The notes below the pieces were generated by a model. That model did not search any database. It was not told where the DNA came from and saw only the letters and a program-made list of their open reading frames with translations. A program made the translations under genes and the position numbers. This document shows positions 542-21,351 of a stretch of DNA of 21,351 nt, piece by piece. The DNA is from a virus (lineage: Duplodnaviria > Heunggongvirae > Uroviricota > Caudoviricetes): the IMG/VR virus record IMGVR_UViG_2861043448_000004, positions 1 through 21,351 of that record, one strand, 5' to 3'. Numbering within the stretch: the stretch's first letter is position 1; each line of letters opens with the position of its first letter.

Positions 542-1579
542 TTAACGCTTATCCGCCACCAGTTTGAGCGCGTGTTCCAGCACATTAATGTCTGCACCCG
601 CTTTATGGGCATTTTCACTTAAATAACGCCGCCACTGCCGCGCGCCAGGAATACCCTGGAACAAGCCCAACATATGCCGGGTAATATGGCCGAGATACGT
701 CCCCTGGCTGAGTTCACGCTCAATGTACGGATACATGGCGCGCACTACCGCCACTGGATCGGCATCGGTATCCGAGGAACCAAAGATCTCCCGGTCTACC
801 GCCGCCAGAATACCCGGATTCTGATACGCCTCGCGCCCGACCATCACGCCATCCATATGTTGCAGGTGTGCTTTGGCCTCTTCCAGCGACTTGATACCAC
901 CGTTAATCGACATTGTCAGATGCGGAAAGTCACGCTTCAGTTGATACACACGCGGATAATCGAGCGGCGGGATTTCACGGTTTTCTTTCGGGCTTAACCC
1001 CGAAAGCCAGGCTTTACGTGCGTGGATGATAAACATCTCACACTCGCCTTTGCCGGAAACGGTGTTGATGAAATCGCAGAGAAATTCATAGCTGTCCTGG
1101 TCATCGATGCCAATACGCGTTTTCACCGTCACTGGAATCGACACCACATCGCGCATCGCTTTCACGCAGTCGGCAACCAGCTGCGCATTACCCATCAGAC
1201 ACGCACCAAACATGCCGTTCTGCACCCGGTCAGACGGGCAGCCGACATTCAGGTTGATCTCATCATATCCACGCGCTTCTGCCAGCTTCGCACACTGTGC
1301 CAGCGCCGCCGGATCGCTACCGCCGAGTTGCAACGCTACCGGATGTTCTTCTTCACTGTACGCCAGGTAATCACCTTTACCGTGAATAATCGCCCCTGTG
1401 GTCACCATTTCGGTATACAGCAACGTATTGCGGGAAAGCAGACGCAAGAAATAGCGGCAATGTCTGTCCGTCCAGTCGAGCATAGGAGCAATGCTAAACC
1501 GAGAACTCCAGTAAGCGCCAGTTTTTTCAGGCATCACGCTGGTTTGATTAGTTTTCTGTGTTTCAGGATTATCGTGCAT
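542..1579 (-). CDS. dusA: tRNA-dihydrouridine synthase A
   Basis: 345-aa translation is collinear with E. coli DusA over the whole length (TIM-barrel Dus motifs such as [14 protein letters not shown] and [23 protein letters not shown]). The first ~30 residues differ from my recollection of the K-12 sequence, as expected if the prophage supplies a replacement 5' end. Confidence 0.9.
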
Positions 1580-1667: not shown

Positions 1668-2765
1668 ATGGCGTACTATAACATAGAGAAACGACTAAAA
1701 TCCGATGGCACACCACGCTATCGCTGTAATGTGATTATCAAAGAAAAAGGTGTTATCACTTACAGGGAAAGCAAAACATTCCCTAAACATGCTCATGCCA
1801 AAACATGGGGCGCACAGAAAGTGATGGAATTAGATCTATATGGCATTCCATCATCAAATGCTGTTGACGGACTTACAGTCCGTGACTTACTACACAAATA
1901 TTTAAATGACCCAAATGCCGGAGGTAAAGCAGGCCGTACTAAAAGATATGTGCTGGAACTGCTTATGGATAGTGACATCTCCGCGATCAAACTATCTGAA
2001 CTGACAGAAAATGACGTAATTGAACATTGCAGGCTAAGAAACAACGCTGGTGCAGGCCCAGCAACAGTCAGCCACGATGTTAGTTATCTTGGCAGTGTTC
2101 TGGATGCGGCAAAACCTGTATACGGAATCAATTACACATCAAACCCGGCGAAAAGCGCTCGTCCATATCTACTTAAACTCGGTTTGATTGGTAAATCAAA
2201 CCGTCGTAATCGTAGACCAGCATCTGATGAACTGAACATGCTCATTGAAGGCCTTCAACAACGATCTACTCATAAATGCTCAAAAATTCCGTTCGTTGAT
2301 ATCCTCAAATTTTCTGTGTGGTCCTGTATGCGAATCGGAGAAGTATGCCGGTTACGATGGGAAGATCTCGACCAGGAACAAAAATCTATACTAGTAAGAG
2401 ACAGGAAAGATCCACGTAAAAAGGAAGGCAACCATATGAAAGTTGCCTTGCTTGGGGAAGCCTGGGATATCGTCCAGCGACAACCCAAAAAATCAGAATT
2501 CATTTTTCCATATAACAGCACTTCTGTTACCGCAGGATTTCAGAGGGTAAGAAGCAAATTAGGTATTAAAGATCTGAGATACCATGATTTGCGTAGAGAA
2601 GGGGCAAGTCGCTTATTTGAGGCTGGTTTTAGTATTGAGGAAGTCGCTCAGGTTACAGGGCATCGTTCATTAAACGTGCTATGGCAGGTATATACCGAAC
2701 TGTATCCGAAATCTTTACATAATCGTTTTGAAGAACTCCAAAGGAGCAGAAATAAGACCTCTTGA
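1668..2765 (+). CDS. int: Phage integrase, tyrosine recombinase (dusA-associated family)
   Basis: 365-aa ORF starting 88 bp upstream of and divergent from the dusA start; C-terminal catalytic region HDLRREGASRLFEAGFSIEEVAQVTGHRSLNVLWQVY carries the tyrosine recombinase H-x-x-R ... H ... Y signature; GAGG Shine-Dalgarno 7 nt upstream of the ATG. Confidence 0.9.
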   Translation: MAYYNIEKRLKSDGTPRYRCNVIIKEKGVITYRESKTFPKHAHAKTWGAQKVMELDLYGIPSSNAVDGLTVRDLLHKYLNDPNAGGKAGRTKRYVLELLMDSDISAIKLSELTENDVIEHCRLRNNAGAGPATVSHDVSYLGSVLDAAKPVYGINYTSNPAKSARPYLLKLGLIGKSNRRNRRPASDELNMLIEGLQQRSTHKCSKIPFVDILKFSVWSCMRIGEVCRLRWEDLDQEQKSILVRDRKDPRKKEGNHMKVALLGEAWDIVQRQPKKSEFIFPYNSTSVTAGFQRVRSKLGIKDLRYHDLRREGASRLFEAGFSIEEVAQVTGHRSLNVLWQVYTELYPKSLHNRFEELQRSRNKTS

Positions 2766-2813
2766 CACTGTTTATCCATACAGTTAAAAATAATACTGTA
2801 TACAAATACAGTG
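2762..2813 (+). promoter_or_regulatory. Sigma70-like promoter overlapped by two LexA (SOS) boxes
   Basis: TTGACA at 2762..2767; two CTGT-N8-ACAG boxes at 2768..2783 (CTGTTTATCCATACAG) and 2796..2811 (CTGTATACAAATACAG), the second a near-consensus 20-mer TACTGTATACAAATACAGTG; located immediately upstream of the dinI-like gene. Confidence 0.6.
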
Positions 2814-2825
2814 TAGGGGACTTTT

Positions 2826-3074
2826 ATGCGTATTGAAATCTGCATAGCCAAAGAAAAAATGACTAAAATGCCAACCGGTGCTGTGGATGCGTTAAAGGAA
2901 GAATTAACCCGACGCATCAGTAAACGTTATGACGATGTAGAAGTGATCGTAAAAGCCACCAGCAACGATGGCCTTTCTGTTACGCGCACCGCTGATAAAG
3001 ATTCAGCTAAAACTTTTGTTCAGGAGACTCTGAAAGATACCTGGGAGTCTGCTGACGAGTGGTTTGTTCATTAA
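2826..3074 (+). CDS. DinI-family SOS-response protein (prophage copy)
   Basis: 82-aa translation [11 protein letters not shown]...[11 protein letters not shown] resembles E. coli DinI (MRIEVTIAK...TWESADDWFV) end to end; AGGGGA Shine-Dalgarno 5 nt upstream; preceded by LexA boxes. Confidence 0.85.
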
Positions 3075-3105
3075 GTTCATCATCTCTGGACACCATTCAC
3101 TTGTA

Positions 3106-3134
3106 TTGACTTTAAGATCATTAAATTGTAATAA
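3106..3134 (+). promoter_or_regulatory. Candidate sigma70 promoter for the membrane protein-RT operon
   Basis: TTGACT at 3106..3111, 17-nt spacer, TAATAA(T) at 3129..3135; sits about 160 nt upstream of the ATG at 3297. Confidence 0.4.
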
Positions 3135-3296
3135 TTCAAAGGGATGGGGCAGGTTTTTCCTCTTGCGCATGCAAGGGCGGCTCTGATAATGAACAGTAAT
3201 ATTTTACTGTTGAGCTTATGCTCACTGATCCTGCCGGGCAGGATGTTCAACGGTTCCAATATATCCTGCCCCTTCCGCTTTTAAAAAGGATCTTTT

Positions 3297-3848
3297 ATGC
3301 ATGACAATATTTGGTTTACATATAAAGCACGTATCCAAGCGCACCATCGACTAGAATGGCTTGAAAAACACTCTCAATTTATCCTCGTTTGGTATGCTAT
3401 ATTGAGTGCGGTACTTTCAATTGTAACGTTGCGATTTCCAAAGGTTCTAGGAGATAATACAGATGTCGTTGCGGCGATACTTTCAGTGGCTCTACTGGGT
3501 ATTTCTCTGATCGTATCTAACCTAGATTTTCGTGGTCGAGCAATAGCCATGAGAAGGAATTATATTGCACTACAGCGACTCTATTTTGACATTACCACCA
3601 GTCAACAGTTATCTCTTGAACAGAAAGAAAAATATTTTAATTTGCTCAATGAGGTTGAGAATCACCGTGACATAGATGATAAAATTTCAAGGGTAACTCA
3701 AGTTGGACTTAAGACGAGGATCCCCACACAAAAAGAAAAAATAATTGTTATTTTATGGATATTACTTCGAATATTTATTACTGCCGCACTTTATATACTC
3801 CCATTAATATATCTTTGGATTGACTATGACTGCAAGCAGAATTTTTAA
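3297..3848 (+). CDS. Predicted multi-pass inner-membrane protein, partner of the reverse transcriptase
   Basis: 183-aa ORF with AGGA Shine-Dalgarno 6 nt upstream; hydrophobic helices FILVWYAILSAVLSIVTL, VVAAILSVALLGISLIVSNL and C-terminal IIVILWILLRIFITAALYILPLIYLWI; AT-rich codon usage unlike flanking genes; 3' end overlaps the RT start by 23 nt. Confidence 0.7.
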   Translation: MHDNIWFTYKARIQAHHRLEWLEKHSQFILVWYAILSAVLSIVTLRFPKVLGDNTDVVAAILSVALLGISLIVSNLDFRGRAIAMRRNYIALQRLYFDITTSQQLSLEQKEKYFNLLNEVENHRDIDDKISRVTQVGLKTRIPTQKEKIIVILWILLRIFITAALYILPLIYLWIDYDCKQNF

Positions 3849-5196
3849 AAAGTCATTCTCGAAAAAAAATCTTCTAAAAGTATACTCTGAAAAAATCAAA
3901 GAATCAGGAGCGATTGGCATAGATCGGATTCGCCCATCAAAACTTGATTTGACAATAAAAAATGAGATCACTTTCATTTTTGAAAAGGTTAATTCTGGCA
4001 ATTACAAATTTACAGCATATAAAGAAAAATTAATATCTAAAGGCGCTAACTCTACACCCAGACAGATTTCCATACCAACTGCTAGGGACAGAATTACTCT
4101 TAGAGCTCTCTGTGAATGCCTTACGGAAATATATCCTAAGTCCAGATTAAAACTACCACATACAGTAATTGACTCATTGAAAGAAGCATTAAACAACAGT
4201 CTATATGCTGAATATGCAAAAATAGATCTTAAAAGTTTCTATCCTTCAATTGAACATAAATTGATAATTAATGCAATAAAAAATAAAATTAGAAAAAAAG
4301 AAATTAGACAGTTAATAACATCATCATTAATCGTGCCTACTGTAAGTGGAACCACAGGAAGCAAAGGTATCCCTAATAATACCAGAGGAGTACCTCAGGG
4401 ATTAGCGATATCAAACATTTTAGCTGAAATATCACTATCTAATTTCGATGATGAAATCAATAAAATGCATGACATATGGTACATGCGATACGTTGATGAC
4501 ATTCTTATTTTAACACCAAAATATCAAGCAACAAAAATAGCTTCTCATATCATTGATAAGCTTCAATCATTAAATTTAAACCCACATCCATTAAATGAAG
4601 AGAACTCAAAATCCAAAGTAGGCAGTTTGGATGAAAGTTTTAACTTTTTGGGATACCACATAGAAAATCGAGAATTATTGATAAAACATGAGAGCATTCT
4701 TAGATTTGAGTCATCCTTAGCAAAAATTTTTACTGCATATAGGCACGCTCTACTACAAGCTAAAAGTAAGCGTGATAAAGAACGAGCTGTTGCATATTGT
4801 CAGTGGAAACTAAATCTCAGAATTACGGGATGTGTGTTTGAAGGTAAACGATTGGGATGGGTATCGTACTTCTCACAAATAACCTCAACAGCTCAACTTC
4901 GCTCTGTTAATCATACTATCAATAATCTTATCCGCCGATTCGGCCTTTCATCAGAAATAAAACCAAAATCTTTGATTAAAACTTTCTATGAACTCCGCAG
5001 AGGTAGAGCGGAGACTTTTAAATACATACCTAACTTTGACAATCTACATATATCTCAGAAACGAGAACTTGTTTCTATGTGGATAGGTAAAGAGAAGGAA
5101 AAAAAACTTAGCAATAGTGAAATAGAGAGGAAGTTTAAATTTAAAATTGCGAAATCAGTAAAAGAGCTTGAAGAGGATATTTCAGGAATATCATAG
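3826..5196 (+). CDS. Reverse transcriptase (defence-associated, non-retron motif pattern)
   Basis: 456 aa from the ATG at 3826 (track ORF begins at a TTG at 3820). RT motifs are all present: GIDRI, RQISIPTARDRITLRAL, YAEYAKIDLKSFYPSI, GVPQGLAISNILAEISL, YMRYVDDILIL (YVDD catalytic box), FNFLGYHI (FLG-type motif 7 rather than the retron VTG); about 170-aa C-terminal extension; AT-rich. Confidence 0.85.
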   Translation: MTASRIFKKSFSKKNLLKVYSEKIKESGAIGIDRIRPSKLDLTIKNEITFIFEKVNSGNYKFTAYKEKLISKGANSTPRQISIPTARDRITLRALCECLTEIYPKSRLKLPHTVIDSLKEALNNSLYAEYAKIDLKSFYPSIEHKLIINAIKNKIRKKEIRQLITSSLIVPTVSGTTGSKGIPNNTRGVPQGLAISNILAEISLSNFDDEINKMHDIWYMRYVDDILILTPKYQATKIASHIIDKLQSLNLNPHPLNEENSKSKVGSLDESFNFLGYHIENRELLIKHESILRFESSLAKIFTAYRHALLQAKSKRDKERAVAYCQWKLNLRITGCVFEGKRLGWVSYFSQITSTAQLRSVNHTINNLIRRFGLSSEIKPKSLIKTFYELRRGRAETFKYIPNFDNLHISQKRELVSMWIGKEKEKKLSNSEIERKFKFKIAKSVKELEEDISGIS

Positions 5197-5633: not shown

Positions 5634-8477
5634 TTATTTAGAGGCAAGCGCCGCCTCAATTGCAGATAATCTTTGTTTTAATTCTGCGTTTTCTTCTTCC
5701 AGCGCGGTAACGCGATCATCTGTTTCACGGGCGACCTGAACAAGTAAGCCCGTCACGGCGGCGTAGTCAACATTCAGATAACGTGTTTCTTCACGTAATT
5801 CATTGCCGTCAACCGTTGGTCCCTGCAACTCTTTACCGTAATGAGTGAATGAGCCTACCGCTTCCGGTATTGCCTCCATTGCTTCCTGTGCAATAACACC
5901 AGCGTAAGGCAGTCCGTTTTCCTTAAGTGTGTAGGTGTACCCGTTCATTTTACGGATAGCTTCGGTTGCGTCACTGATAATCTGAATATTGTCTTTCAGC
6001 TCGCGGTCTGATAACTGATTCAGTGTTGTACAGTTAATAGCACCGTTTACATCAAACAGCTGACCTGACGATGTTTTTTGAGCATAAAACAGATACGCGG
6101 CAGACGTTCCAACCTCAAAAACGTTTTGTCGATCACCTGAACCCCACACCTTGACAGCAAATGGTAGTTCTGTATTACCTAAGTTCTGTAAAACAAAACG
6201 ATTGCCAGTCCCTGTTTGTTTTGTAAGAGTTAAATCAACAGTTGAGTTAACCTCATCCTTGTTGATAGTGAGCGCCTGCGCTTTAGCACCGTTAACAGCA
6301 CCTGTTTTGAGTTGAACCGCGCCGTCATTACCATTTAGCAGTATCTCAGCTCCGCTAAAGAAATTTTTTAGCGACAGCATCTTACTTACGCCGACTGATG
6401 AACCCAACGCCCACGCGAGAGAATTACCGGTGCTATCAAACCCACGTACAAAGCAATCCATTTTGCTATAGTCTGACGTGCTTCCAAGGACATCAATCCG
6501 CCCTCCGCCAGATTTTATCGGGTTAGATGTGGTTAATGACCTGACAGCAAGAGCGGTAGATGAATTGAGATCGTCTACTGTTAGTAATTTCTTCCATTCC
6601 TGCGTCGTTCCATTTTCAATTGTTCTTCCCCAAAAACCGGAATTGCGGCCTCCGAACTGCACAGCATAATTTTTACTAAATTGAACATGAATGCCGCCAA
6701 GAACCATAGAGCCTGCCGGGCCGTTTGTACTGCCTGCAATTGGTCTAAATTTGTCGACGTTATCAGTATGCTGAGCGTTCCAGTCTCGTCCTGTTTTTGT
6801 AAGCAGTCCTAATGTCGTGTCGAGCGCTTCGGTTAAAGTAAGGTTTTTAAATTTAACTGCGCTACTTTCGCCAAGACTTAAGTTGTTTCGCGCATCTTCT
6901 ACTGTTGTCGCACCTGTACCTCCTTGCCCAACAGCTAATGGCAACCAGCCAGTGCCATTATGACAACCCCACAAACCAGATTTGGAAACCTGTAAGCGTG
7001 GTGCGCCTGAAGAATACGTAGAATATACGTAAGTTGTTTCTTTTCCCTCTTCAACCCTTTCTGTTGATACATCTCTCTTCCATTCAGACCAGGTACCGCT
7101 ACCTCCTTCATATATTCGTCTATAAGTAATTCCCGGATTATTATAAGGGTGGTACACCTGAACGCAGGAAGAAGCAGTGTTGGCTCTCGTTTGGAGCACT
7201 ATTAAAGCGCCCGCCAGACCGATTGGGTAATTTAATTCTTCTGTTGCGTAAGCGCTCGTTGGTTGTTGATAGAAACCAGAATATTCACCGGTAAGGGTGT
7301 TTAGGTCAGTATTAGCAAGGCCAGCTTTTTGCTCATACATTACCCGCAAGTTCGCACGTGCTTGCTCGATAGTTCTTCCACCAGTACCACCCTGGGCTAA
7401 ACCTAACGGAGACCATTGTCCAGAAGAAGAATCATAAACCCCCCAACTCCCGTTAGTATGGATTTCAAAGAAACGATCACCAGTTGGACCATACATACGA
7501 GTTGTTGATTCATTTTGACCAAAGCGGCTTAATTCATCTCTGCGGGTATGACGTATCCATTGCGGGCCAGAACTTTGGCTGTAAATGTACGAATACAATG
7601 ATTTTGTATCTGAACCAACAAATAGACCGGAATATCTTTTTGTTGACACTTCTGATCTAACTATATAACCAGAAATAAGATTATCCCCGGCACTAGACGC
7701 TACTGATGGATAACCTTTCGCTGAGATGTAAATCCTGATAAATCCAATATAACCTGATGGCTCAACAGAGATATCAGTGCAGGTCATAGCAACTTCACCA
7801 AGACCAATATTGTTACCAACAACGGATTGTGCCTGGTTGCGATAATTAAGTGCGTCCGCTGCAGATTTCGCCGCGTTTGTTTCACTGGATTTAGCATTAG
7901 TTTCGCTGCTCTTTGCTGCTGCCTCGCTATTTTTCGCGTTGGTTTCTGATTTTTTGGCTGCTGTCGCGGAGTTTGCCGATGCAGTTTGTGAGGCCGCTGC
8001 CGCCTGTGCGCTGTTATCCGCATTCGTCTCAGACGTTTTTGCGGCCTTCGCGGAATTTCCTGCCGCCGTTGCCGAAGAGGCTGCACTACTGGCGCTCGAG
8101 GCTGCGCTCGTTTCTGATGATTTCGCTGCCTCTTTTGAGGCCGCCGCATCCCGGGCTGAGGTGGCAGCTTCTGACGCTTTCGTGGTCGCGGTGGATGCAG
8201 AAGTGGCTGCAGATTTTTGTGACGCTGCAGCATTCGTTTCTGACGTTTTCGCCGCACCGGCACTGGTAGCCGCCGCGCTTTTTGAGGACTCTGCAGCGGC
8301 AGCACTTTTTGATGCTTCAGTAGCCTTTGTTGATGCCGTTCCTGCGCTGGAAGACGCTGACTGAGCCGACGTCGCGGCCTGCCCGGCTGATGTGCTGGCT
8401 GCACGTGCTGAGCCTGCAGCATCAGTCGCATGGGTTCCCAGAGCACCACGCTGGCCGACTGCTCCGCACGGGTGCAT
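5634..8477 (-). CDS. stf: Side tail fibre protein lacking its N-terminal region, with C-terminal intramolecular chaperone (peptidase S74-like) domain
   Basis: Ala/Ser-rich repeats (SARAASTSAGQAATSAQ..., KTSETNA repeats) align with the part of lambda Stf that starts around residue 150 (from memory); two GQGGTG...ARxNL collar repeats; C-terminal LSDRELKDNIQ...VDYAAVTGLLVQ with ENAELKQRL coiled coil is typical of the self-cleaving chaperone domain. The first ATG directly follows the in-frame TGA of the upstream terminase fragment. Confidence 0.75.
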   Translation of the reverse strand: MHPCGAVGQRGALGTHATDAAGSARAASTSAGQAATSAQSASSSAGTASTKATEASKSAAAAESSKSAAATSAGAAKTSETNAAASQKSAATSASTATTKASEAATSARDAAASKEAAKSSETSAASSASSAASSATAAGNSAKAAKTSETNADNSAQAAAASQTASANSATAAKKSETNAKNSEAAAKSSETNAKSSETNAAKSAADALNYRNQAQSVVGNNIGLGEVAMTCTDISVEPSGYIGFIRIYISAKGYPSVASSAGDNLISGYIVRSEVSTKRYSGLFVGSDTKSLYSYIYSQSSGPQWIRHTRRDELSRFGQNESTTRMYGPTGDRFFEIHTNGSWGVYDSSSGQWSPLGLAQGGTGGRTIEQARANLRVMYEQKAGLANTDLNTLTGEYSGFYQQPTSAYATEELNYPIGLAGALIVLQTRANTASSCVQVYHPYNNPGITYRRIYEGGSGTWSEWKRDVSTERVEEGKETTYVYSTYSSGAPRLQVSKSGLWGCHNGTGWLPLAVGQGGTGATTVEDARNNLSLGESSAVKFKNLTLTEALDTTLGLLTKTGRDWNAQHTDNVDKFRPIAGSTNGPAGSMVLGGIHVQFSKNYAVQFGGRNSGFWGRTIENGTTQEWKKLLTVDDLNSSTALAVRSLTTSNPIKSGGGRIDVLGSTSDYSKMDCFVRGFDSTGNSLAWALGSSVGVSKMLSLKNFFSGAEILLNGNDGAVQLKTGAVNGAKAQALTINKDEVNSTVDLTLTKQTGTGNRFVLQNLGNTELPFAVKVWGSGDRQNVFEVGTSAAYLFYAQKTSSGQLFDVNGAINCTTLNQLSDRELKDNIQIISDATEAIRKMNGYTYTLKENGLPYAGVIAQEAMEAIPEAVGSFTHYGKELQGPTVDGNELREETRYLNVDYAAVTGLLVQVARETDDRVTALEEENAELKQRLSAIEAALASK

Positions 8478-9890
8478 TCATTCAGTGTTTCCTGCCGGAT
8501 AGCTGGCCGGATCAATTCGCTGGCTCTCCCCGTCGCTGTCACCGCGCAATGACTGCGTGATGTTGTAACGATCAATAATCCAGCGTTCGCCACGGCTGCC
8601 ATAGCCCGTTACCTGAACCACAAAACGGCGATGACGTCCCGCCTGCACATCCACTGTCGCCACAAGGAAATTAACGCCATCCGGCACACTGCGGGAAGGA
8701 ACTGGCTCTGCCCGCTGCTCAAGCAATTCACTTTTTCGTTGCTCCATGCTGGCGCGGGGAAGATAAGGTAATCCCCAGTCGGTATTGATAACCGTCTTGA
8801 GTGTCTCTTCACTTCCGGTTGTCTCGTATTCCTGTTCTGCAGTAAGCAGTTTGTAAACGAGTTGCGAGAGTGTCTGATAAGCAGCTGCCGGCCCCTCCAT
8901 CCAGAATGACGCAATACGTGAACGCCGGGGATCACCATAACGACTGCCATCTGCATTGATGGATTCACCATCCCGTAACCAGACCCCACGTCCGTTCAGC
9001 TCGCGTTTTTGTTCAGGCAAAATCCGTCCTGAACAGGAAGGACACTGAATATAAGCCGCCTCACTTGCCAGCACAGGATCGGCAATATCACGGAAACCAG
9101 CAACCACATCGCCGCAGGGCTGAAAATACTCACCACAGTGTGGACAGGGCCAGTACCAGCGACGGCGATCGCCACGGTTATAGAGCGACAGGATCCCCGT
9201 GGTTGGTGGAGCCTCATGCGGTGAAGTCCGTCGCCATTTCACATCCTTCACATCCCTGCCGGGGGAACTCTCCACCAGCGTCATACCACTGGACATAAAT
9301 GTGGTGGTACGTTTTGAGGCAAGAGAGAAGGCATCCCCCTCACCATCAATATCTTCCGGAAAACGGTCATAATCCGTCAGCGCCACGCATTTATAATCTG
9401 ATGAAGACATGATATTGACTGACGGCCAGCCGATTTTCAGGTAGTTGCCAGCAAGGAATGTTCTGTCATAAACGTTGTTGTCATTTTTGTTCGGACTCAG
9501 GCGACTGACCACTTCCGGGCTGACGCGAAACGTTCTGGCGAGTCGTTTTTTGGAGTGTTCGCGGGCTTTTTCCTCCGTCATCTGAATGATCAGCATATCA
9601 GCAGGATCGCAAATCACGTTGTAAATCACCCAGCCGTCAATCAGGCCGATAGTCTTGCCGGTTCGTGCCGGGCCAACAAATATCACTGCGTCGTATTCAC
9701 GCGAGGCCAGGCAGTTCATAGGCTCAATAACATACGGTGCCACCAGCGGATCCCACGGGACTGAGTTCCCTGCCCCCATGGGCACCCGCATATACTGAGC
9801 AACGGCATCAGCAACCCGCATTCGTCTCGGTGCGCGAAGGATATAACCTGAATCGGTTCGTGCTGCCTTTGCGGTTTCCTGATTCAGCAT
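8478..9890 (-). pseudogene. Terminase large subunit (GpA family), C-terminally truncated
   Basis: 470 aa against about 640 in lambda gpA; contains GPARTGKT Walker-A-like motif, zinc-finger-like WPCPHCGEYFQ ... CPSCSG and WIIDRYNI resembling lambda gpA ACPHCGEE and SWLIDRQII; start overlaps the small-subunit stop (TAATG) with GGAGGAG Shine-Dalgarno; ORF ends abruptly at TGA directly abutting stf. Confidence 0.75.
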
Positions 9891-11807: not shown

Positions 11808-12178
11808 TTCTGCCCCCACAAACAGACTTCACGCTCAATCTCCCGACGAGTCATCAGTCCTTTCCATTGCTTACCGCCAGCGTATGTCCAGCGACGTAGC
11901 TGATCACACGCACCTTTGATATCGTCCCGGTTGATTTTGCGAAGAAGCGTCGATGTTCTGAAATTTCCAGTATCCGGAGGAAACAACACGATCTCCACTG
12001 AAGCAGGTGCCGACGTTGGTTTCGGCAGACGACGTAACTGCTCAACTATTGCTGCGCACGCCGCGCTCTGAAATTTTCGCCCCGCCTCGCTTATCAGGCT
12101 CTTACCAGCAAATGCCCCTTTGTTGGGGTGTCGCCAGTACGTGTTCACACTGGGCGGGAAAGGAAGGATCAACTTCAT
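11804..12178 (-). pseudogene. Chimeric ORF: RusA resolvase N-terminus fused to endolysin C-terminus
   Basis: Residues 1 to about 68 (LPFPPSVNTYWRH...VEIVLFPPD) resemble RusA (LPWPPSNNRYYRH...) but stop before the catalytic acidic cluster; the remainder [54 protein letters not shown] matches the C-terminus of a DLP12 RrrD-type lysozyme (from memory). Confidence 0.6.
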
Positions 12179-12501
12179 ACTTTCAGGCCCCTCTCATGTA
12201 ACCAGTGGGCTGCACGCAACCTGGCGTTCTCCTCACCGGCAAGCAGTGCGCGGATGATACCGACCGCCTCGCTGTCGTCGTCCTTCACTGCGGTATGAAG
12301 CGTGATCCCCCGGGCCACGCCACGCTTTATCGTGATGACGCCTTTTTTCTCCAGTGCGCGAAGATGCTCCACGGCTGCATTCACTGAACGGTATCCCAGC
12401 ATGGTTGCCACCTCCTGATTGGTTGGCAGAAAGCCACGCTCTTGCTGGTAAGAAATCAGAATATCCAGCACCTGCTGCTGGCATTGAGTTAACGTCGTCA
12501 T
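12175..12501 (-). CDS. LexA-like winged-helix DNA-binding protein with no peptidase domain
   Basis: 108 aa; MTTLTQCQQQVLDILISYQQERGFLPTNQEVATMLGYRSVNAAVEHLRALEKKGVITIKRGVARGITL parallels LexA residues 1 to about 70 (MKALTARQQEVFDLI...[30 protein letters not shown]); no S24 Ser/Lys domain follows. Confidence 0.6.
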   Translation of the reverse strand: MTTLTQCQQQVLDILISYQQERGFLPTNQEVATMLGYRSVNAAVEHLRALEKKGVITIKRGVARGITLHTAVKDDDSEAVGIIRALLAGEENARLRAAHWLHERGLKV

Positions 12502-14460: not shown

Positions 14461-14693
14461 GCTGCACCTCCGAGATGCTTCATGTTTTTTCCGGAGCGAA
14501 AGGCTATAAGCGGCATACTGACGCGGTAATTACGGCCCAGCGGTTCACAAATCACCTTCTGGCATTCACGGTCAACCAGGCTAACACGTAGAACATGCCC
14601 TGCAGGTGTGGTGTACCACTGCCCAACTGTAGGAATTGATGTTTTTTTACGCTGAAGCAAACGGCAAATATTGAGGATCAACGGATTAAGCAT
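14457..14693 (-). CDS. Hypothetical small phage protein (78 aa)
   Basis: ORF with ATGA-type overlaps to both neighbours in the early-right operon; no recognised family. Confidence 0.45.
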   Translation of the reverse strand: MLNPLILNICRLLQRKKTSIPTVGQWYTTPAGHVLRVSLVDRECQKVICEPLGRNYRVSMPLIAFRSGKNMKHLGGAA

Positions 14694-15522
14694 GACGATG
14701 CCCTCCGCTGATATTCAGGAGACGGTGAATATGAAAATTAGCCTTATCCGCCAGACGAATACGTTCAGCCTGCAAGTTAAGAAGGGTTTCTACCAGAACT
14801 TGATGCGCCTGCGGATCCGAAAGAGTTACCTTGCGCAGAGCACGTAGTGCAGTTGTTACATAACTGAGTTTATGTAAGTCTTCATCATTCAGACGAGTGA
14901 GGGCTGGGACAGTAGCCATGATGGCAGCCTCCGATAACAGTGAATTACCTTCACCACCGGAAACGCCAATTTCGCTGGTGGTGAACTGAACGGGGTTGGC
15001 GTAACCGGCGTTATCGGAAACCGGCGCACCTTTCGGTGCCCCCGTCCAGCCCACCATAATTTGGGTGTGCACAGACGCAGACGATAAAAAAGACGCTGGC
15101 GCGTCATATATCGCCGATAACATTTCCAGGACGCCAATCCCGGCACCCGCTTTATAAGGTGCCTGAACAGTGTAACGTCCCGGAATGGCAGAATCAATGT
15201 GCTGGTGGTCCTTCACACTCAACAAAATCACGCCTGAATTTCCACAAAGGACTAAAGCACTCATGCGGGTAGTCTTTGCGAAGATAGATAACGCGCTGTG
15301 TTTCTGGCTCCCAACGAATAACATGGACATAAAGCCCTCTTCCGTCACGAAACCAGCGGTTAAGTTCCTGCACAACTCGCCCCCCACAGTCAGGTAAAGT
15401 TCTCTGTGGTTACTTACAGCCAGGTGATTTGGTAATCTGCATTCATGCCGTAACAACAGGTGTTCAGCGACACTGACCACCAGCTGTTGCGACAAACGGT
15501 TATTTGCCGTTAAACTGTTCAT
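14686..15522 (-). CDS. Hypothetical phage protein (278 aa), possibly YdaU-like
   Basis: Long intact ORF, translationally coupled to the upstream gene; family assignment tentative and from memory only. Confidence 0.5.
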   Translation of the reverse strand: MNSLTANNRLSQQLVVSVAEHLLLRHECRLPNHLAVSNHRELYLTVGGELCRNLTAGFVTEEGFMSMLFVGSQKHSALSIFAKTTRMSALVLCGNSGVILLSVKDHQHIDSAIPGRYTVQAPYKAGAGIGVLEMLSAIYDAPASFLSSASVHTQIMVGWTGAPKGAPVSDNAGYANPVQFTTSEIGVSGGEGNSLLSEAAIMATVPALTRLNDEDLHKLSYVTTALRALRKVTLSDPQAHQVLVETLLNLQAERIRLADKANFHIHRLLNISGGHRHA

Positions 15523-16082
15523 GCGTTAGTTTCTCCACAGACACAAAACGCCACGACGCCCGGAGCTGCACACTCGCGGGCGTCACTCTTTTCTGGAGCG
15601 CAAAAGATTTTGTAGACCAGTGCTGCATGCTCCTGGAGCTTCGAAATTGACAGATACAACTCATCATTAATTGCTGTCTGCTCGTGTGGCTCCACTACCC
15701 CATCTTCGATTGCCGAACGAATCTGCTTTGAGTAACTCCCGATCTGTTCGATGACTTCCAGCAGGCGCTGGTTTATATCGGCGTTCTCTACTTCCTCAAT
15801 TTCAGGAAGCGATACAAACACCCCACCAGCAGACTGTGCGACAGCATCCGCAATGTAGTGAGTGCCAGCCGCGCGCTGTAAAATCATTGCCCATCCCAGC
15901 GGGAAAATCTGATCGCCATCTGCACGAAGGCGGTTGAATAAAGCGTTCTCTGTTACATCCAGCCACTCAGCAGCTTCAGCGTAACCCCCCGGCAACGCCG
16001 CGATAGTTTTTCTGACAGCTTTCACGTACCACTCAGGCTGTTTTTCTACTTTCCAGTGATGCTTACCCACGGTTAGCCTCAT
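15519..16082 (-). CDS. Putative CII-like early regulatory protein (187 aa)
   Basis: Sits immediately downstream of the cro-like gene in the cII position; identity inferred from position more than from sequence. Confidence 0.4.
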   Translation of the reverse strand: MRLTVGKHHWKVEKQPEWYVKAVRKTIAALPGGYAEAAEWLDVTENALFNRLRADGDQIFPLGWAMILQRAAGTHYIADAVAQSAGGVFVSLPEIEEVENADINQRLLEVIEQIGSYSKQIRSAIEDGVVEPHEQTAINDELYLSISKLQEHAALVYKIFCAPEKSDARECAAPGVVAFCVCGETNA

Positions 16083-16404: not shown

Positions 16405-17079
16405 ATGAAAACAGTCCATGACATCCGGCGGTCTAACGCCAGAAAACTGAGAGATGGTGTTGGCGGGAATTCTTCCTTTGCCACCATGATTGATCGCGAG
16501 CCAACCCAGACCAGCAGGTTTATGGGAGATGGTGCAACTAAAAATATCGGTGACAGCATGGCACGGCACATCGAAAAATGTTTCGACCTGCCTGTCGGAT
16601 GGCTTGATCAAGAACACCAGACAACGAACATCACAAAAAAACCTGACGTTTCAATCACTAACAAACAAATAACGTTAGTCCCTGTCATATCATGGGTACA
16701 GGCCGGAGCATGGAAAGAAGTTGGCTATTCTGAGGTTGATTTGAGCACAGCAGAAACTTATCCCTGCCCTGTACCCTGTGGCGAAATGACTTATATCTTG
16801 CGGGTGATTGGTGATTCAATGATTGATGAGTACCGCCCGGGAGACATGATTTTTGTTGATCCTGAAGTCCCTGCCTGCCACGGTGACGACGTTATTGCAT
16901 TGATGCACGATACAGGCGAAACCACCTTCAAGCGGTTGATAGAAGATGGAACACAGCGTTACCTCAAAGCATTAAACCCAAACTGGCCTGAACCTTACAT
17001 TAAGATCAACGGTAATTGCTCTATAATTGGTACAGTGATTTTCTCAGGAAAACCAAGAAGATACAAAATAAAGGCCTAA
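16405..17079 (+). CDS. CI-like prophage repressor with LexA-type S24 autopeptidase domain
   Basis: 224 aa; N-terminal HTH; Ala-Gly cleavage site in WVQAGAWKE; catalytic Ser in VIGDSMIDEY and Lys in TTFKRLIEDG. Confidence 0.85.
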   Translation: MKTVHDIRRSNARKLRDGVGGNSSFATMIDREPTQTSRFMGDGATKNIGDSMARHIEKCFDLPVGWLDQEHQTTNITKKPDVSITNKQITLVPVISWVQAGAWKEVGYSEVDLSTAETYPCPVPCGEMTYILRVIGDSMIDEYRPGDMIFVDPEVPACHGDDVIALMHDTGETTFKRLIEDGTQRYLKALNPNWPEPYIKINGNCSIIGTVIFSGKPRRYKIKA

Positions 17080-20877: not shown

Positions 20878-21351
20878 TCAGAGGCCCTGACATTGCTGTC
20901 GGTTATTCAATAAATCATGATAATAAGCCTTGATCGCATCATTTGAGATGATCGACGAGCCAATACCATTATAAGCTTGTGACCAAGGCGTACCTGGCAT
21001 ATGAGTTAGAGTTGATAACTCAATTCCATTTTTCGAGCCGTAAAACTTATAAACAGCCCCGATAATGCTCTCTGCTTGCGGATCCATAGTAACGATGCCA
21101 CCAAAAGGAGCTACTGCTACATTCGTAACAGGTTTATTCCCATAGTCTTTGAAAGCATCGTACATTCCAGGAATAACTGGACCGTACTTCCACGCGGAGA
21201 CACATTCATTGAGCAAAGGCTTACCTGTTAATGCTAAATAGTAACCATGGGCAATATAAGTAAGCTTCTGCAGTTGCATGTGGGTCAGAGGATTATGATG
21301 TTGGTTTCCCAACGTTATGAATTTATTGGCTATTTGTACCGGACTGTACAT
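20878..21351 (-). CDS. Panacea-domain (DUF4065, SocA-like) protein; candidate antitoxin
   Basis: 157 aa; MQLQKLTYIAHGYYLALTGKPLLNECVSAWKYGPVIPGMYDAFKDYG matches the Panacea core pattern (KLQKLLYyaqG ... pLf ... AW.yGPV ... Y). Start codon is the last three bases of the window, so the upstream region is unseen. Confidence 0.65.
   Translation of the reverse strand: MYSPVQIANKFITLGNQHHNPLTHMQLQKLTYIAHGYYLALTGKPLLNECVSAWKYGPVIPGMYDAFKDYGNKPVTNVAVAPFGGIVTMDPQAESIIGAVYKFYGSKNGIELSTLTHMPGTPWSQAYNGIGSSIISNDAIKAYYHDLLNNRQQCQGL

Follow-up and report, generated by a model that had tools for sequence, protein, structure and literature searches.

Two LexA-type operators at the promoter of a dinI-like gene in an Escherichia coli lambdoid prophage remnant: a probable self-contained phage module

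Two palindromes of the LexA type lie around a promoter-like sequence at the end of an integrase gene, upstream of a dinI-like gene, and the question raised by this locus is whether they place a DinI homologue under SOS control and whether the position next to the integrase has any part in it. The window, that is, the whole stretch of 21,351 nucleotides that was analysed, is an E. coli lambdoid prophage remnant at dusA. It is 100% identical to at least 51 complete E. coli genomes, in which the context is dusA/pspG/qorA; since the host is E. coli, the specificity of E. coli LexA applies. The dinI module sits between the att/int end and the side tail-fibre genes, in the direction opposite to that of the tail-fibre genes. 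We consider it highly probable that positions 2762-3074 form a self-contained moron, consisting of a sigma-70 promoter, two high-affinity LexA operators and a phage copy of dinI. The features of the locus are as follows.

1668-2765, plus strand: tyrosine integrase gene, dusA-associated, whose 3′ end adjoins the dinI module
2762-2767, plus strand: −35 hexamer TTGACA, a perfect match, which includes the integrase stop codon TGA (2763-2765)
2768-2783, plus strand: LexA box 1, CTGTTTATCCATACAG (20-mer at 2766-2785, CACTGTTTATCCATACAGTT), filling the spacer between −35 and −10
2786-2791, plus strand: −10 hexamer AAAAAT from the promoter scan, with an 18-nt spacer
2785-2790, plus strand: alternative −10 hexamer TAAAAA, with a 17-nt spacer
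2796-2811, plus strand: LexA box 2, CTGTATACAAATACAG (20-mer at 2794-2813, TACTGTATACAAATACAGTG), over the predicted start and the early 5′UTR
2815-2820, plus strand: Shine-Dalgarno sequence AGGGGA, 5 nt before the ATG, read from the sequence
2826-3074, plus strand: dinI-like gene, 82 aa, RefSeq "DinI-like family protein" WP_001217553.1

The sequence from position 2760 on reads tcTTGACACTGTTTATCCATACAGttaaaaataataCTGTATACAAATACAGtgtaggggacttttATG. An exact-pattern search for CTGT-N8-ACAG gave three matches in the window, at 2768-2783, 2796-2811 and 15404-15419, where the expectation per window is 0.23 ± 0.53 and three or more sites occurred in 0 of 100 shuffles. The expected number of pairs of such sites within 44 bp of each other is about 1e-4 per window by arithmetic from the shuffle rate. 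The preliminary description had reported two such sites at 2762-2813, one of them near-consensus, and this proved accurate: both match the pattern exactly, and the 20-mers of box 2 and box 1 agree with the LexA consensus TACTGTATATATATACAGTA at 17 and 15 of the 20 positions, respectively. Both boxes form the 16-bp palindrome that is required of an E. coli-type LexA operator.

The heterology index (HI), which had been proposed as a check on both boxes, came to 4.6 at box 1 and 3.7 at box 2, like the values of classical SOS operators; it was calculated with a matrix that was built from 31 E. coli LexA sites and that differs from the original Lewis 1994 matrix. The leave-one-out values of the known sites obtained with this matrix correlate with the published HI (Spearman 0.80) on a scale of approximately 1:1, and the matrix was checked further on one site read from the K-12 sequence. 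Classical SOS genes have an HI of 13 or lower, so both boxes fall inside the range of proven LexA sites (PMC11228462 Table 1). Among the 42,664 20-mers on both strands of the window, only box 1 and box 2 have an HI below 12. The third CTGT-N8-ACAG match, at 15404-15419 upstream of isrK/C4, has an HI of 16-17, which is poor, and it is probably non-functional as a LexA site. The palindromes were also considered as an RNA structure or terminator at the 3′ end of int, similar to sib of lambda; this was rejected, as the stem of each would be limited to 4 bp, with a loop of 8 nt, and a terminator scan of the plus strand gave nothing.

The arrangement TTGACA-18-AAAAAT at 2762-2791 has 10 of 12 matches in the promoter scan. 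Its −10 hexamer is weak (4/6), and in this AT-rich stretch matches of the promoter type are no rarity, 8 having been found where 4.6 were expected. Box 1 lies in the spacer, and box 2 begins 5 nt past the −10 hexamer and ends 14 nt before the dinI-like ATG, which agrees with the earlier placement of the sites within and just downstream of a TTGACA promoter. The boxes are 12 bp apart (28 bp centre to centre), and both overlap the predicted core promoter or start site, box 2 being over the start, which is predicted at about 2798 from the position of the −10 hexamer. The promoter had been placed directly after the integrase stop codon; this is near the mark, but strictly the two overlap, as the TGA lies inside the −35 hexamer.

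The gene downstream encodes a DinI homologue, as had been claimed. The 82-aa protein matches Pfam PF06183 over the whole profile (1-63/63; 1.1e-19, 70.9 bits against a cut-off of 24.2), PHROG 189 "RecA filament binding protein DinI" (5.7e-31) and the PDB entries 1GHH/7YWA over residues 1-81 (3.7e-13). It is 46% identical to K-12 DinI, including the C-terminal motif aligned with TWESADDWFV. The acidic C-terminal helix of DinI is reportedly implicated in RecA binding (Voloshin et al. 2001, cited in PMC3121763).

Of 5426 complete E. coli genomes, 1791 contain the unit from the −35 hexamer to the dinI stop codon, as do 103 phage records (mEp460, cdtI, Stx phages); a single genome has up to 7 copies, and several O157 strains have 4-6. 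The edges of the module are sharp, at the −35 hexamer on the left and at the stop codon on the right. With regard to a moron, its own promoter, an orientation against the late genes and sharp edges were seen, and the terminator is present in relatives and replaced in the window. Because the homology begins at the −35 hexamer irrespective of the upstream sequence, the adjacency to the integrase is incidental; the same module adjoins ssrA, yecD-side sequence or hypothetical genes in other phages, which argues against the meaning that had been read into it. The position beside the integrase would be a by-product of the site that the module occupies in such phages.

A contig scan with the DinI-like protein gave just 4 near-identical loci; the diversity analysed here comes from IMG/VR scans with three diverged homologues and from contigs of Salmonella homologues. 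Among the 48 unique upstream regions, which belong to DinI-like genes at 60-100% amino acid identity, 46 have two boxes with an HI below 11 at about −59 and −31. Box 1 is kept at −59/−60 and box 2 at −30 to −33 from the ATG in the homologues, and the substitutions in the upstream regions are mainly in the flanks, the box interiors and the spacer between the boxes. The order of TTGACA, box, −10, box and Shine-Dalgarno sequence is found in diverged E. coli and Salmonella relatives in which the box sequences differ (for example, CTGTATAAATAACCAG, CTGATTGTTTATACAG, CTGTATATCCAACCAG and CTGTACATAACTACAG). The −35 hexamer is TTGACA in all seven aligned phage or prophage promoters and TTGTCA in chromosomal K-12 dinI. 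In the homologues, AAAAAT, AATAAT or TATAAA stands at the place of the −10 hexamer, and AGGGA, AGGAG or AGGAA at that of the Shine-Dalgarno sequence. The centre-to-centre spacing of the boxes varies from 26 to 29 bp among the homologues; therefore, cooperative binding of LexA is not implied.

In the undamaged cell, a LexA dimer on box 1, between the −35 and −10 hexamers, would block the binding of RNA polymerase, and a second dimer on box 2, over the start, would block initiation or escape, so that occupancy of both boxes together would give tight repression. After DNA damage, RecA filaments would induce the self-cleavage of LexA, both operators would become clear, and the DinI-like protein would be made. 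By homology with E. coli DinI, its acidic C-terminal helix may bind RecA filaments, and the bound protein may modulate both the stability of the filaments and their co-protease activity. The earlier claim of a dinI homologue under SOS control stands as far as a dual-operator LexA-type promoter is concerned, for which the quality, position and conservation of the operators and the published control of phage dinI genes argue (PMC3121763, PMC8072944, PMC7556043); damage inducibility of this allele is predicted.

LexA control of phage dinI homologues is already established for Gifsy-1/2/3, PhiKO2, Serratia OS31 and Tum of 186, and the present locus is an ordinary representative of a common, already described type of phage accessory module, with no new mechanism. 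The same module is present, at 92-97% nucleotide identity, in mEp460 (gp21, JQ182728) and as copies in cdtI, CP-1639, BP-4795 and Stx1a/2a/2c phages. In mEp460, int is likewise followed by dinI and by the oppositely directed side tail-fibre genes, and the same TTGACA is annotated as a promoter in GenBank. The LexA boxes are unannotated in the records of this group, which keep a conserved stem-loop and a terminator in the dinI 3′UTR, whereas the window has SLATT and reverse-transcriptase genes there. K-12 dinI (b1061) is likewise an SOS gene, encoding an 81-aa modulator of the RecA filament with the same C-terminal acidic motif, and its box has an HI of 4.6 by the same matrix; however, it has a single box, ACCTGTATAAATAACCAGTA, overlapping the −10 hexamer, a −35 hexamer of TTGTCA and its own terminator, whereas the phage version has two boxes flanking the −10 hexamer.

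The din-like gene of PhiKO2, for which LexA regulation has been reported, and p60 of Serratia OS31 resemble the present gene in being opposite to tail-fibre genes and in the LexA site, close to the consensus, that lies a few bp upstream of them (PMC7556043 and its ref. 79). They differ in that PhiKO2 (a linear plasmid prophage) and OS31 (a Serratia siphovirus) are other phage types, one site is described, and the translation of OS31 p60 is coupled to that of a second gene. Tum of 186, Fels-2 and PSP3 is also a LexA-repressed phage gene with DinI-like sequence (PMC3121763 Discussion), but its 146 aa include an antirepressor half, either fused to the DinI-like half or next to it, whereas the 82 aa encoded in the window align end to end with the 81-aa DinI. 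In a transcriptome study, the dinI-like gene c0943 of CFT073 moved with sulA, umuD, recN and dinI (PMC2817434).

More than one LexA site per promoter is known from lexA (2 boxes), recN (3) and Salmonella chromosomal dinI (2), as listed in PMC8072944 Table 1 for SOS promoters with 2-3 boxes, and from the colicin genes, in which 2 overlapping boxes give tight repression (PMC2994835). The second box of Salmonella chromosomal dinI is very weak (HI 17.6), whereas both boxes in the window are strong and lie 12 bp apart. In the literature searched, no paper was found that explicitly describes a dual-box promoter of this kind from E. coli phages.

The importance of the locus is modest: the module is present in about one third of complete E. 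coli genomes, and no new question is opened, because LexA control of phage dinI is already established. In a polylysogen, the host SOS network would gain several DinI paralogues that are predicted to be SOS-inducible, and each copy would bring two further high-affinity LexA sites; RecA filament dynamics, mutagenesis and prophage repressor cleavage could change with this dosage. Records that mark only a promoter, such as that of mEp460, could have the two boxes added to their annotation.

Among the alternatives to a LexA-controlled dinI moron, the first concerns a second protein of the LexA type encoded by the prophage itself.

12175-12501, minus strand: LexA-DNA-binding-domain-only protein, 108 aa, with no cleavage domain

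The palindromes might also, or instead, serve as operators of this protein, which could hold dinI and host SOS genes off once the host LexA is gone; we regard this as unlikely. The protein matches the entire LexA_DNA_bind domain of Pfam (1.8e-17) and is 42% identical to residues 1-86 of E. coli LexA, with the recognition helix RSxNAAxEH and the wing RGI kept, and no strong LexA-type site other than box 1 and box 2 occurs in the 21-kb window. The N-terminal domain of LexA alone binds DNA weakly because dimerisation resides in the C-terminal domain, which the 108-aa protein lacks, having a 40-aa tail in its place. Its gene is common among lambdoid phages, and in several of them (cdtI, PhiR40_1, phiSTEC1575-Stx2k, SKA5, 2H10 and Stx2c phages) the dinI module is present too; however, this co-occurrence may just reflect phage kinship, and the module is far more widely spread in phage records than the 108-aa gene (103 vs 61). 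A homologue of the LexA N-terminal domain has a known regulatory role in Bacillus phage GIL01 (PMC6182141). In the literature searched, no description of the nin-region protein with a LexA DNA-binding domain was found.

The second alternative concerns the cassette that follows dinI in the window and replaces the usual dinI 3′UTR and terminator, a replacement specific to a subset of E. coli prophages.

3075-5196, plus strand: SLATT and UG17 reverse-transcriptase (RT) cassette
3106-3135 and about 3143-3275, plus strand: cassette leader, with a promoter-like site (extended −10) and a structured RNA, respectively
3297-3848, plus strand: SLATT gene
3820/3826-5196, plus strand: RT (UG17) gene

With the usual 3′UTR and terminator replaced, read-through from the LexA-controlled promoter into the cassette is possible. 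The promoter might then matter mainly by this read-through, which would make the SLATT/RT genes, a candidate defence, damage-inducible and dinI little more than a leader; this appears even less likely than operators of the 108-aa protein. The 3′UTR and intrinsic terminator that are seen in mEp460 and in 59 distinct 3′ flanks of related loci are replaced in the window from the first post-stop base, at which the cassette match begins in the genomes listed, and a canonical terminator was not found on the plus strand of 3075-3296. SLATT/RT comes after a dinI-like gene, or what remains of one, at all loci inspected (prophages at the dusA site and on the yecD side, and those IMG/VR contigs that extend upstream), and in the yecD-side lineage dinI is frameshifted while both boxes are intact. 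On the other hand, the cassette has the promoter-like site of its own noted above, and cassettes of 97-98% identity persist where the dinI promoter and the 5′ half of the gene are deleted (L185, L191). Approximately 90% of the genomes with the dinI module are without the cassette (187 genomes with the cassette vs 1791 with the module), and the simplest account of the linkage is insertion at a cargo hotspot; cdtABC, pagK or a pyocin gene occupies the same slot elsewhere. In more distant UG17/SLATT cassettes (RT identity 62-84%), the 700 nt upstream contain neither dinI nor a LexA box; with these cassettes and two lineages without the dinI promoter, SLATT/RT was rejected as an obligate part of a LexA-controlled operon. 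An Rfam search of the dinI/leader region and of the mEp460 dinI 3′UTR gave no known RNA family. A combination of the two alternatives, in which host LexA and the 108-aa protein share the operators, the phage could re-silence dinI and host SOS genes after the loss of LexA, and the loss of the terminator adds damage-inducible read-through into SLATT/RT, is less probable than either.

A very improbable reading is that the locus is a switch of the Gifsy type, i.e., a LexA-controlled operon with an antirepressor payload directed against the prophage repressor. The comparison with Gifsy was made by the text and tables of PMC3121763 and PMC8072944. The likeness to Gifsy-1/-2/-3 is that there, too, a prophage encodes a DinI paralogue outside the immunity region and a strong LexA box closely precedes its ATG (Lemire et al. 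2011, PMC3121763; Mérida-Floriano et al. 2021, PMC8072944). Mitomycin C or nalidixic acid induces the dinI homologues of Gifsy-1/2/3, which have LexA boxes (PMC3121763); the HI of these boxes is 3.9-5.3 and the induction 4.6- to 23-fold (PMC8072944 Table 1). In phage 186, moreover, the antirepressor Tum is fused to a DinI-like half (PMC3121763). However, one box is reported for the damage-induced dinI-gfoA/gftA-irsA operons and two are present here, and the Gifsy dinI lies 1.3 kb downstream of the replication genes, whereas that of the window is at the int/tail-fibre junction. The Gifsy operons run on into the antirepressor that triggers induction, whereas no such gene follows dinI in the window, where the repressor candidate is of the self-cleaving type.

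16405-17079: prophage repressor candidate, 224 aa, with a Peptidase_S24 self-cleavage domain (1.5e-26)

The protein of the window is DinI-only, with 82 aa against 146 for Tum. Only mechanical ORFs of 40 and 46 aa, neither plausible, occur in 3064-3284; 3075-3296 is the leader of the RT cassette, which travels with the cassette even without the dinI promoter; and in mEp460 and most relatives a terminator comes immediately after dinI. Since no antirepressor follows dinI and the repressor candidate carries an S24 domain, the boxes are very probably not the induction switch. The link to prophage induction dynamics that had been suggested stays hypothetical; in the nearest systems studied, Gifsy-1 and Gifsy-3, non-polar deletions of the dinI homologues had no significant effect on the level or rate of induction (PMC3121763 Discussion, where the data are not shown).

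Finally, that the palindromes are chance matches or relics without a regulatory role is hardly credible: the prophage is indeed defective, with a tail-fibre gene abutting a truncated terminase gene, but such a pair is hardly expected by chance, the HI is low at both boxes, and the layout has been kept across Escherichia and Salmonella while the box sequences changed.

The window is a piece of E. coli chromosome in which dusA is the insertion site of a defective lambdoid prophage. At least 51 complete E. coli genomes match positions 2600–3300 with 100% identity, and the same genes are annotated in RefSeq.

Features of the window (coordinates, strand, description)
542–1579, minus strand, dusA
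1668–2765, plus strand, tyrosine integrase
2826–3074, plus strand, DinI-like gene, 82 aa
3075–5196, plus strand, SLATT and reverse-transcriptase cassette (PF18160; PADLOC RTasSLATT 1.5e-56; PADLOC RT_UG17 1.2e-158)
3297–3848, plus strand, SLATT protein
3820/3826–5196, plus strand, UG17-class reverse transcriptase
5634–8477, minus strand, tail-fibre gene, 947 aa, with Ala/Ser-rich repeats and a C-terminal Peptidase_S74 chaperone domain
8478–9890, minus strand, truncated large-terminase gene, with the gpA ATPase and 116/294 positions of the nuclease domain
12175–12501, minus strand, LexA-DNA-binding-domain-only protein, 108 aa (Pfam LexA_DNA_bind 1.8e-17; PHROG 362)
14686–15522 and 15519–16082, ORFs of the C4/isrK region
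14974–15162, minus strand, C4 antisense RNA and isrK Hfq-binding RNA (Rfam 82.8 bits and 63.7 bits, both above gathering scores)
16405–17079, plus strand, CI-like repressor candidate, 224 aa, with a Peptidase_S24 domain, adjoining a YdaS-like gene
20878–21351, minus strand, SocA/Panacea antitoxin-domain protein, running off the window end

The tail-fibre gene ends exactly at the start of the truncated large-terminase gene (5634–9890, minus strand), which indicates that most morphogenesis genes were deleted and that the prophage is defective. Strain AR434 has the identical junction and a different decay pattern. Beyond the terminase gene, the lysis, nin-like, replication and immunity genes follow.

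A pattern search of the window gave three exact CTGT-N8-ACAG palindromes, at 2768–2783 (box 1), 2796–2811 (box 2) and 15404–15419, where 0.23 are expected, and none of 100 shuffles contained three. The two sites at a TTGACA promoter reported in the preliminary description are correct and clearly non-random. The promoter reads TTGACA CTGTTTATCCATACAG TT AAAAAT AATA CTGTATACAAATACAG TGT AGGGGA CTTTT ATG, which the promoter scan returned as TTGACA-18-AAAAAT. Box 1 fills the spacer between the −35 and −10 elements, and box 2 starts 5 nt past the −10 and spans the predicted start site, leaving 14 nt to the ATG. The location next to the integrase was also described correctly, although the promoter does not strictly follow the integrase stop codon, which lies at 2763–2765 inside TTGACA.

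The heterology index (HI), whose lower values denote closer likeness to proven SOS operators, was computed with our own matrix, built on 31 LexA sites of E. coli known from the literature, in place of the original one. The leave-one-out values correlated with the published HI at a Spearman coefficient of 0.80 on a roughly 1:1 scale (PMC11228462 Table 1), and the dinI site among the 31 is present in the K-12 sequence. With this matrix, the HI is 3.7 for box 2 (TACTGTATACAAATACAGTG) and 4.6 for box 1 (CACTGTTTATCCATACAGTT), which is the classical SOS range of the sulA, recA and dinI sites. The scan with the same matrix found no other 20-mer with an HI below 12 in the window, and the site at 15404–15419 is poor (HI 16–17).

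The gene behind the promoter is a DinI homologue, as had been proposed. The 82-aa protein matches Pfam DinI across the full domain, PHROG 189 and the solved DinI chains 1GHH/7YWA, and aligns with K-12 DinI over its entire length at 46% identity, a 10-residue C-terminal segment included. A Tum-like fusion was considered and rejected, the protein being DinI-only.

In DNA searches, the segment that begins at the −35 and closes with the dinI stop codon proved to be a module shared by many genomes and phages. Of 5426 complete E. coli genomes, 1791 carry it, in as many as 7 copies each, and it was also found in 103 phage records, among them those of mEp460, cdtI, CP-1639 and many Stx1a/2a/2c phages. 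From IMG/VR and phage records, 48 different sequences upstream of DinI-like genes were collected (60–100% amino-acid identity to the window protein); in 46 of them two boxes are present, each with an HI under 11, at roughly −59 and −31 relative to the ATG. In near-identical copies, substitutions fall in the flanks, box interiors, −35 and inter-box spacer, and the CTG/CAG arms are seldom changed. In distant E. coli and Salmonella relatives, the order TTGACA, box, −10, box, SD is kept and the box sequences differ, box 1 being CTGTATAAATAACCAG or CTGATTGTTTATACAG and box 2 CTGTATATTCAACCAG, CTGTATATCCAACCAG, CTGTACATCTAAACAG or CTGTACATAACTACAG. Across the homologues, the centres of the two boxes are 26 to 29 bp apart, a variation that does not point to strict helical phasing.

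LexA control is established for the dinI homologues of Gifsy-1/2/3, where a LexA box adjoins dinI, mitomycin C treatment leads to accumulation of the DinI protein, and nalidixic acid induces expression 4.6- to 23-fold at HI 3.9–5.3 (PMC3121763; PMC8072944). It is also reported for the PhiKO2 homologue and predicted for Serratia phage OS31, whose dinI-like gene lies opposite a tail-fibre gene, as in the window (PMC7556043). Whereas chromosomal K-12 dinI has a single box over its −10, the phage module has two; no description of this dual-box arrangement in E. coli phages was found in the literature searched. The dinI-like promoter is a two-operator layout within the known class of LexA-controlled phage dinI genes, a small variation on a known theme.

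The suggested SOS control of the dinI-like gene is well supported by the sequence, comparative and literature evidence. In the best-supported reading, LexA would repress the promoter through two independent strong operators, one blocking RNA polymerase binding and the other lying over the predicted start site. RecA filaments would induce LexA cleavage and release both operators, and the product would then affect RecA filaments in the manner of DinI. With two strong operators, the promoter is predicted to be tightly repressed and to allow little basal expression, in line with descriptions of multi-box and low-HI promoters (PMC2994835).

The significance attached to the neighbouring integrase was not borne out. 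Homology of the module begins at window 2757–2762, at the −35, regardless of what precedes it (this integrase, ssrA, a yecD-side junction or a hypothetical gene), so that the adjacency is incidental and indicates no functional coupling. It reflects the usual place of the module between the att/int end and the tail-fibre genes. In mEp460, int and dinI are likewise followed by an oppositely oriented side tail fibre gene, and the same TTGACA is marked as a promoter in the depositors' annotation. The proposed link to prophage induction dynamics is unsupported, being weakened by the non-polar deletions of the Gifsy-1 and Gifsy-3 dinI homologues, which had no significant effect on induction (PMC3121763). 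The Gifsy operon runs on into an antirepressor driving induction, whereas no such gene follows dinI in the window, where the repressor candidate has an S24 self-cleavage domain.

On the 3' side, relatives carry a conserved 3'UTR stem-loop and an intrinsic terminator after dinI, which in the window are replaced by the SLATT/reverse-transcriptase cassette from the first post-stop base. No canonical terminator was found between dinI and SLATT, so SOS-driven read-through is conceivable. The cassette occurs in 187 complete E. coli genomes; among those listed, the match begins at the first base past the dinI-like stop. All inspected loci, which comprise two different prophage lineages and the IMG/VR contigs reaching far enough upstream, have a dinI-like gene or the remnant of one immediately before the cassette. 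On the other hand, the cassette persists in two lineages that lack the dinI promoter, neither dinI nor LexA boxes lie upstream of more distant UG17 cassettes, and the same slot elsewhere holds cdtABC, pagK or a pyocin gene with its own LexA box. Functional read-through from the dinI promoter is accordingly given a low probability, and the linkage is treated as insertion into a cargo hotspot.

In the yecD-side prophage of THO-003 and S5 (loci L173/L175, 2259–2478), the dinI-like gene is frameshifted with a premature stop; the SLATT/reverse-transcriptase cassette after it is intact, as is the promoter, including its two LexA boxes. In Salmonella prophages (L207–L211, about 2040–2120), a Pyocin_S/Cloacin-domain bacteriocin gene with its own TTGACA promoter and LexA box (TGCTGTATATACATCCACCA, HI 7.2) lies downstream of the dinI-like module and terminator, which indicates that the slot collects varied cargo, some of it independently SOS-controlled. 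The 220-nt cassette leader contains a promoter-like site with an extended −10 (3106–3135) and a stable structured RNA at about 3143–3275 (z = −3.0; no Rfam match). Its modelled long-range pairing, with a GGGGCAGG/CCUGCCCC-like stem, may represent a cassette-associated non-coding RNA.

The conserved dinI 3'UTR occurs in mEp460 (locus L002, 3337–3450) and 58 other distinct 3' flanks (e.g., loci L009, L081 and L206–L211). Phage dinI-like genes whose 3' flank is long enough almost all have it; the window has no copy at up to 3 mismatches. Its stem, GGCUGG...CCAGCC with G:C to A:U exchanges, encloses the almost invariant loop UCAUUCAAUACUCGCACUAUCGAA, which is more conserved than the coding sequence. 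Behind this stem-loop lies a variable terminator hairpin that shows compensatory changes. The element has no Rfam family and, by analogy with Klebsiella DinR (PMC10907235), may be a 3'UTR-derived small RNA.

Both the C4 and the isrK RNA are located within a mechanical ORF that carries an Ash-family domain and are preceded by a CII/CP76-like gene; some 240 nt separate isrK from the third CTGT-N8-ACAG (15404–15419) upstream of it. The arrangement is that of a P1/P7- or Gifsy-type antirepressor-control region, here within a lambdoid prophage.

The 108-aa protein, whose gene has a Dam methylase gene on one side and a lysozyme remnant on the other, consists of a LexA DNA-binding domain and a 40-aa C-terminal tail, without the S24 cleavage domain. 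It is 42% identical to E. coli LexA residues 1–86, with the recognition-helix motif largely kept (RSxNAAxEH) and the wing RGI kept. Its gene is common in the lambdoid nin region, and tblastn gave matches in 61 phage records, of which 54 are full length (SfV, cdtI and Stx2c phages). The protein might be a non-cleavable LexA mimic that binds SOS boxes, perhaps including boxes 1 and 2; no description of such a protein was found in the literature searched.
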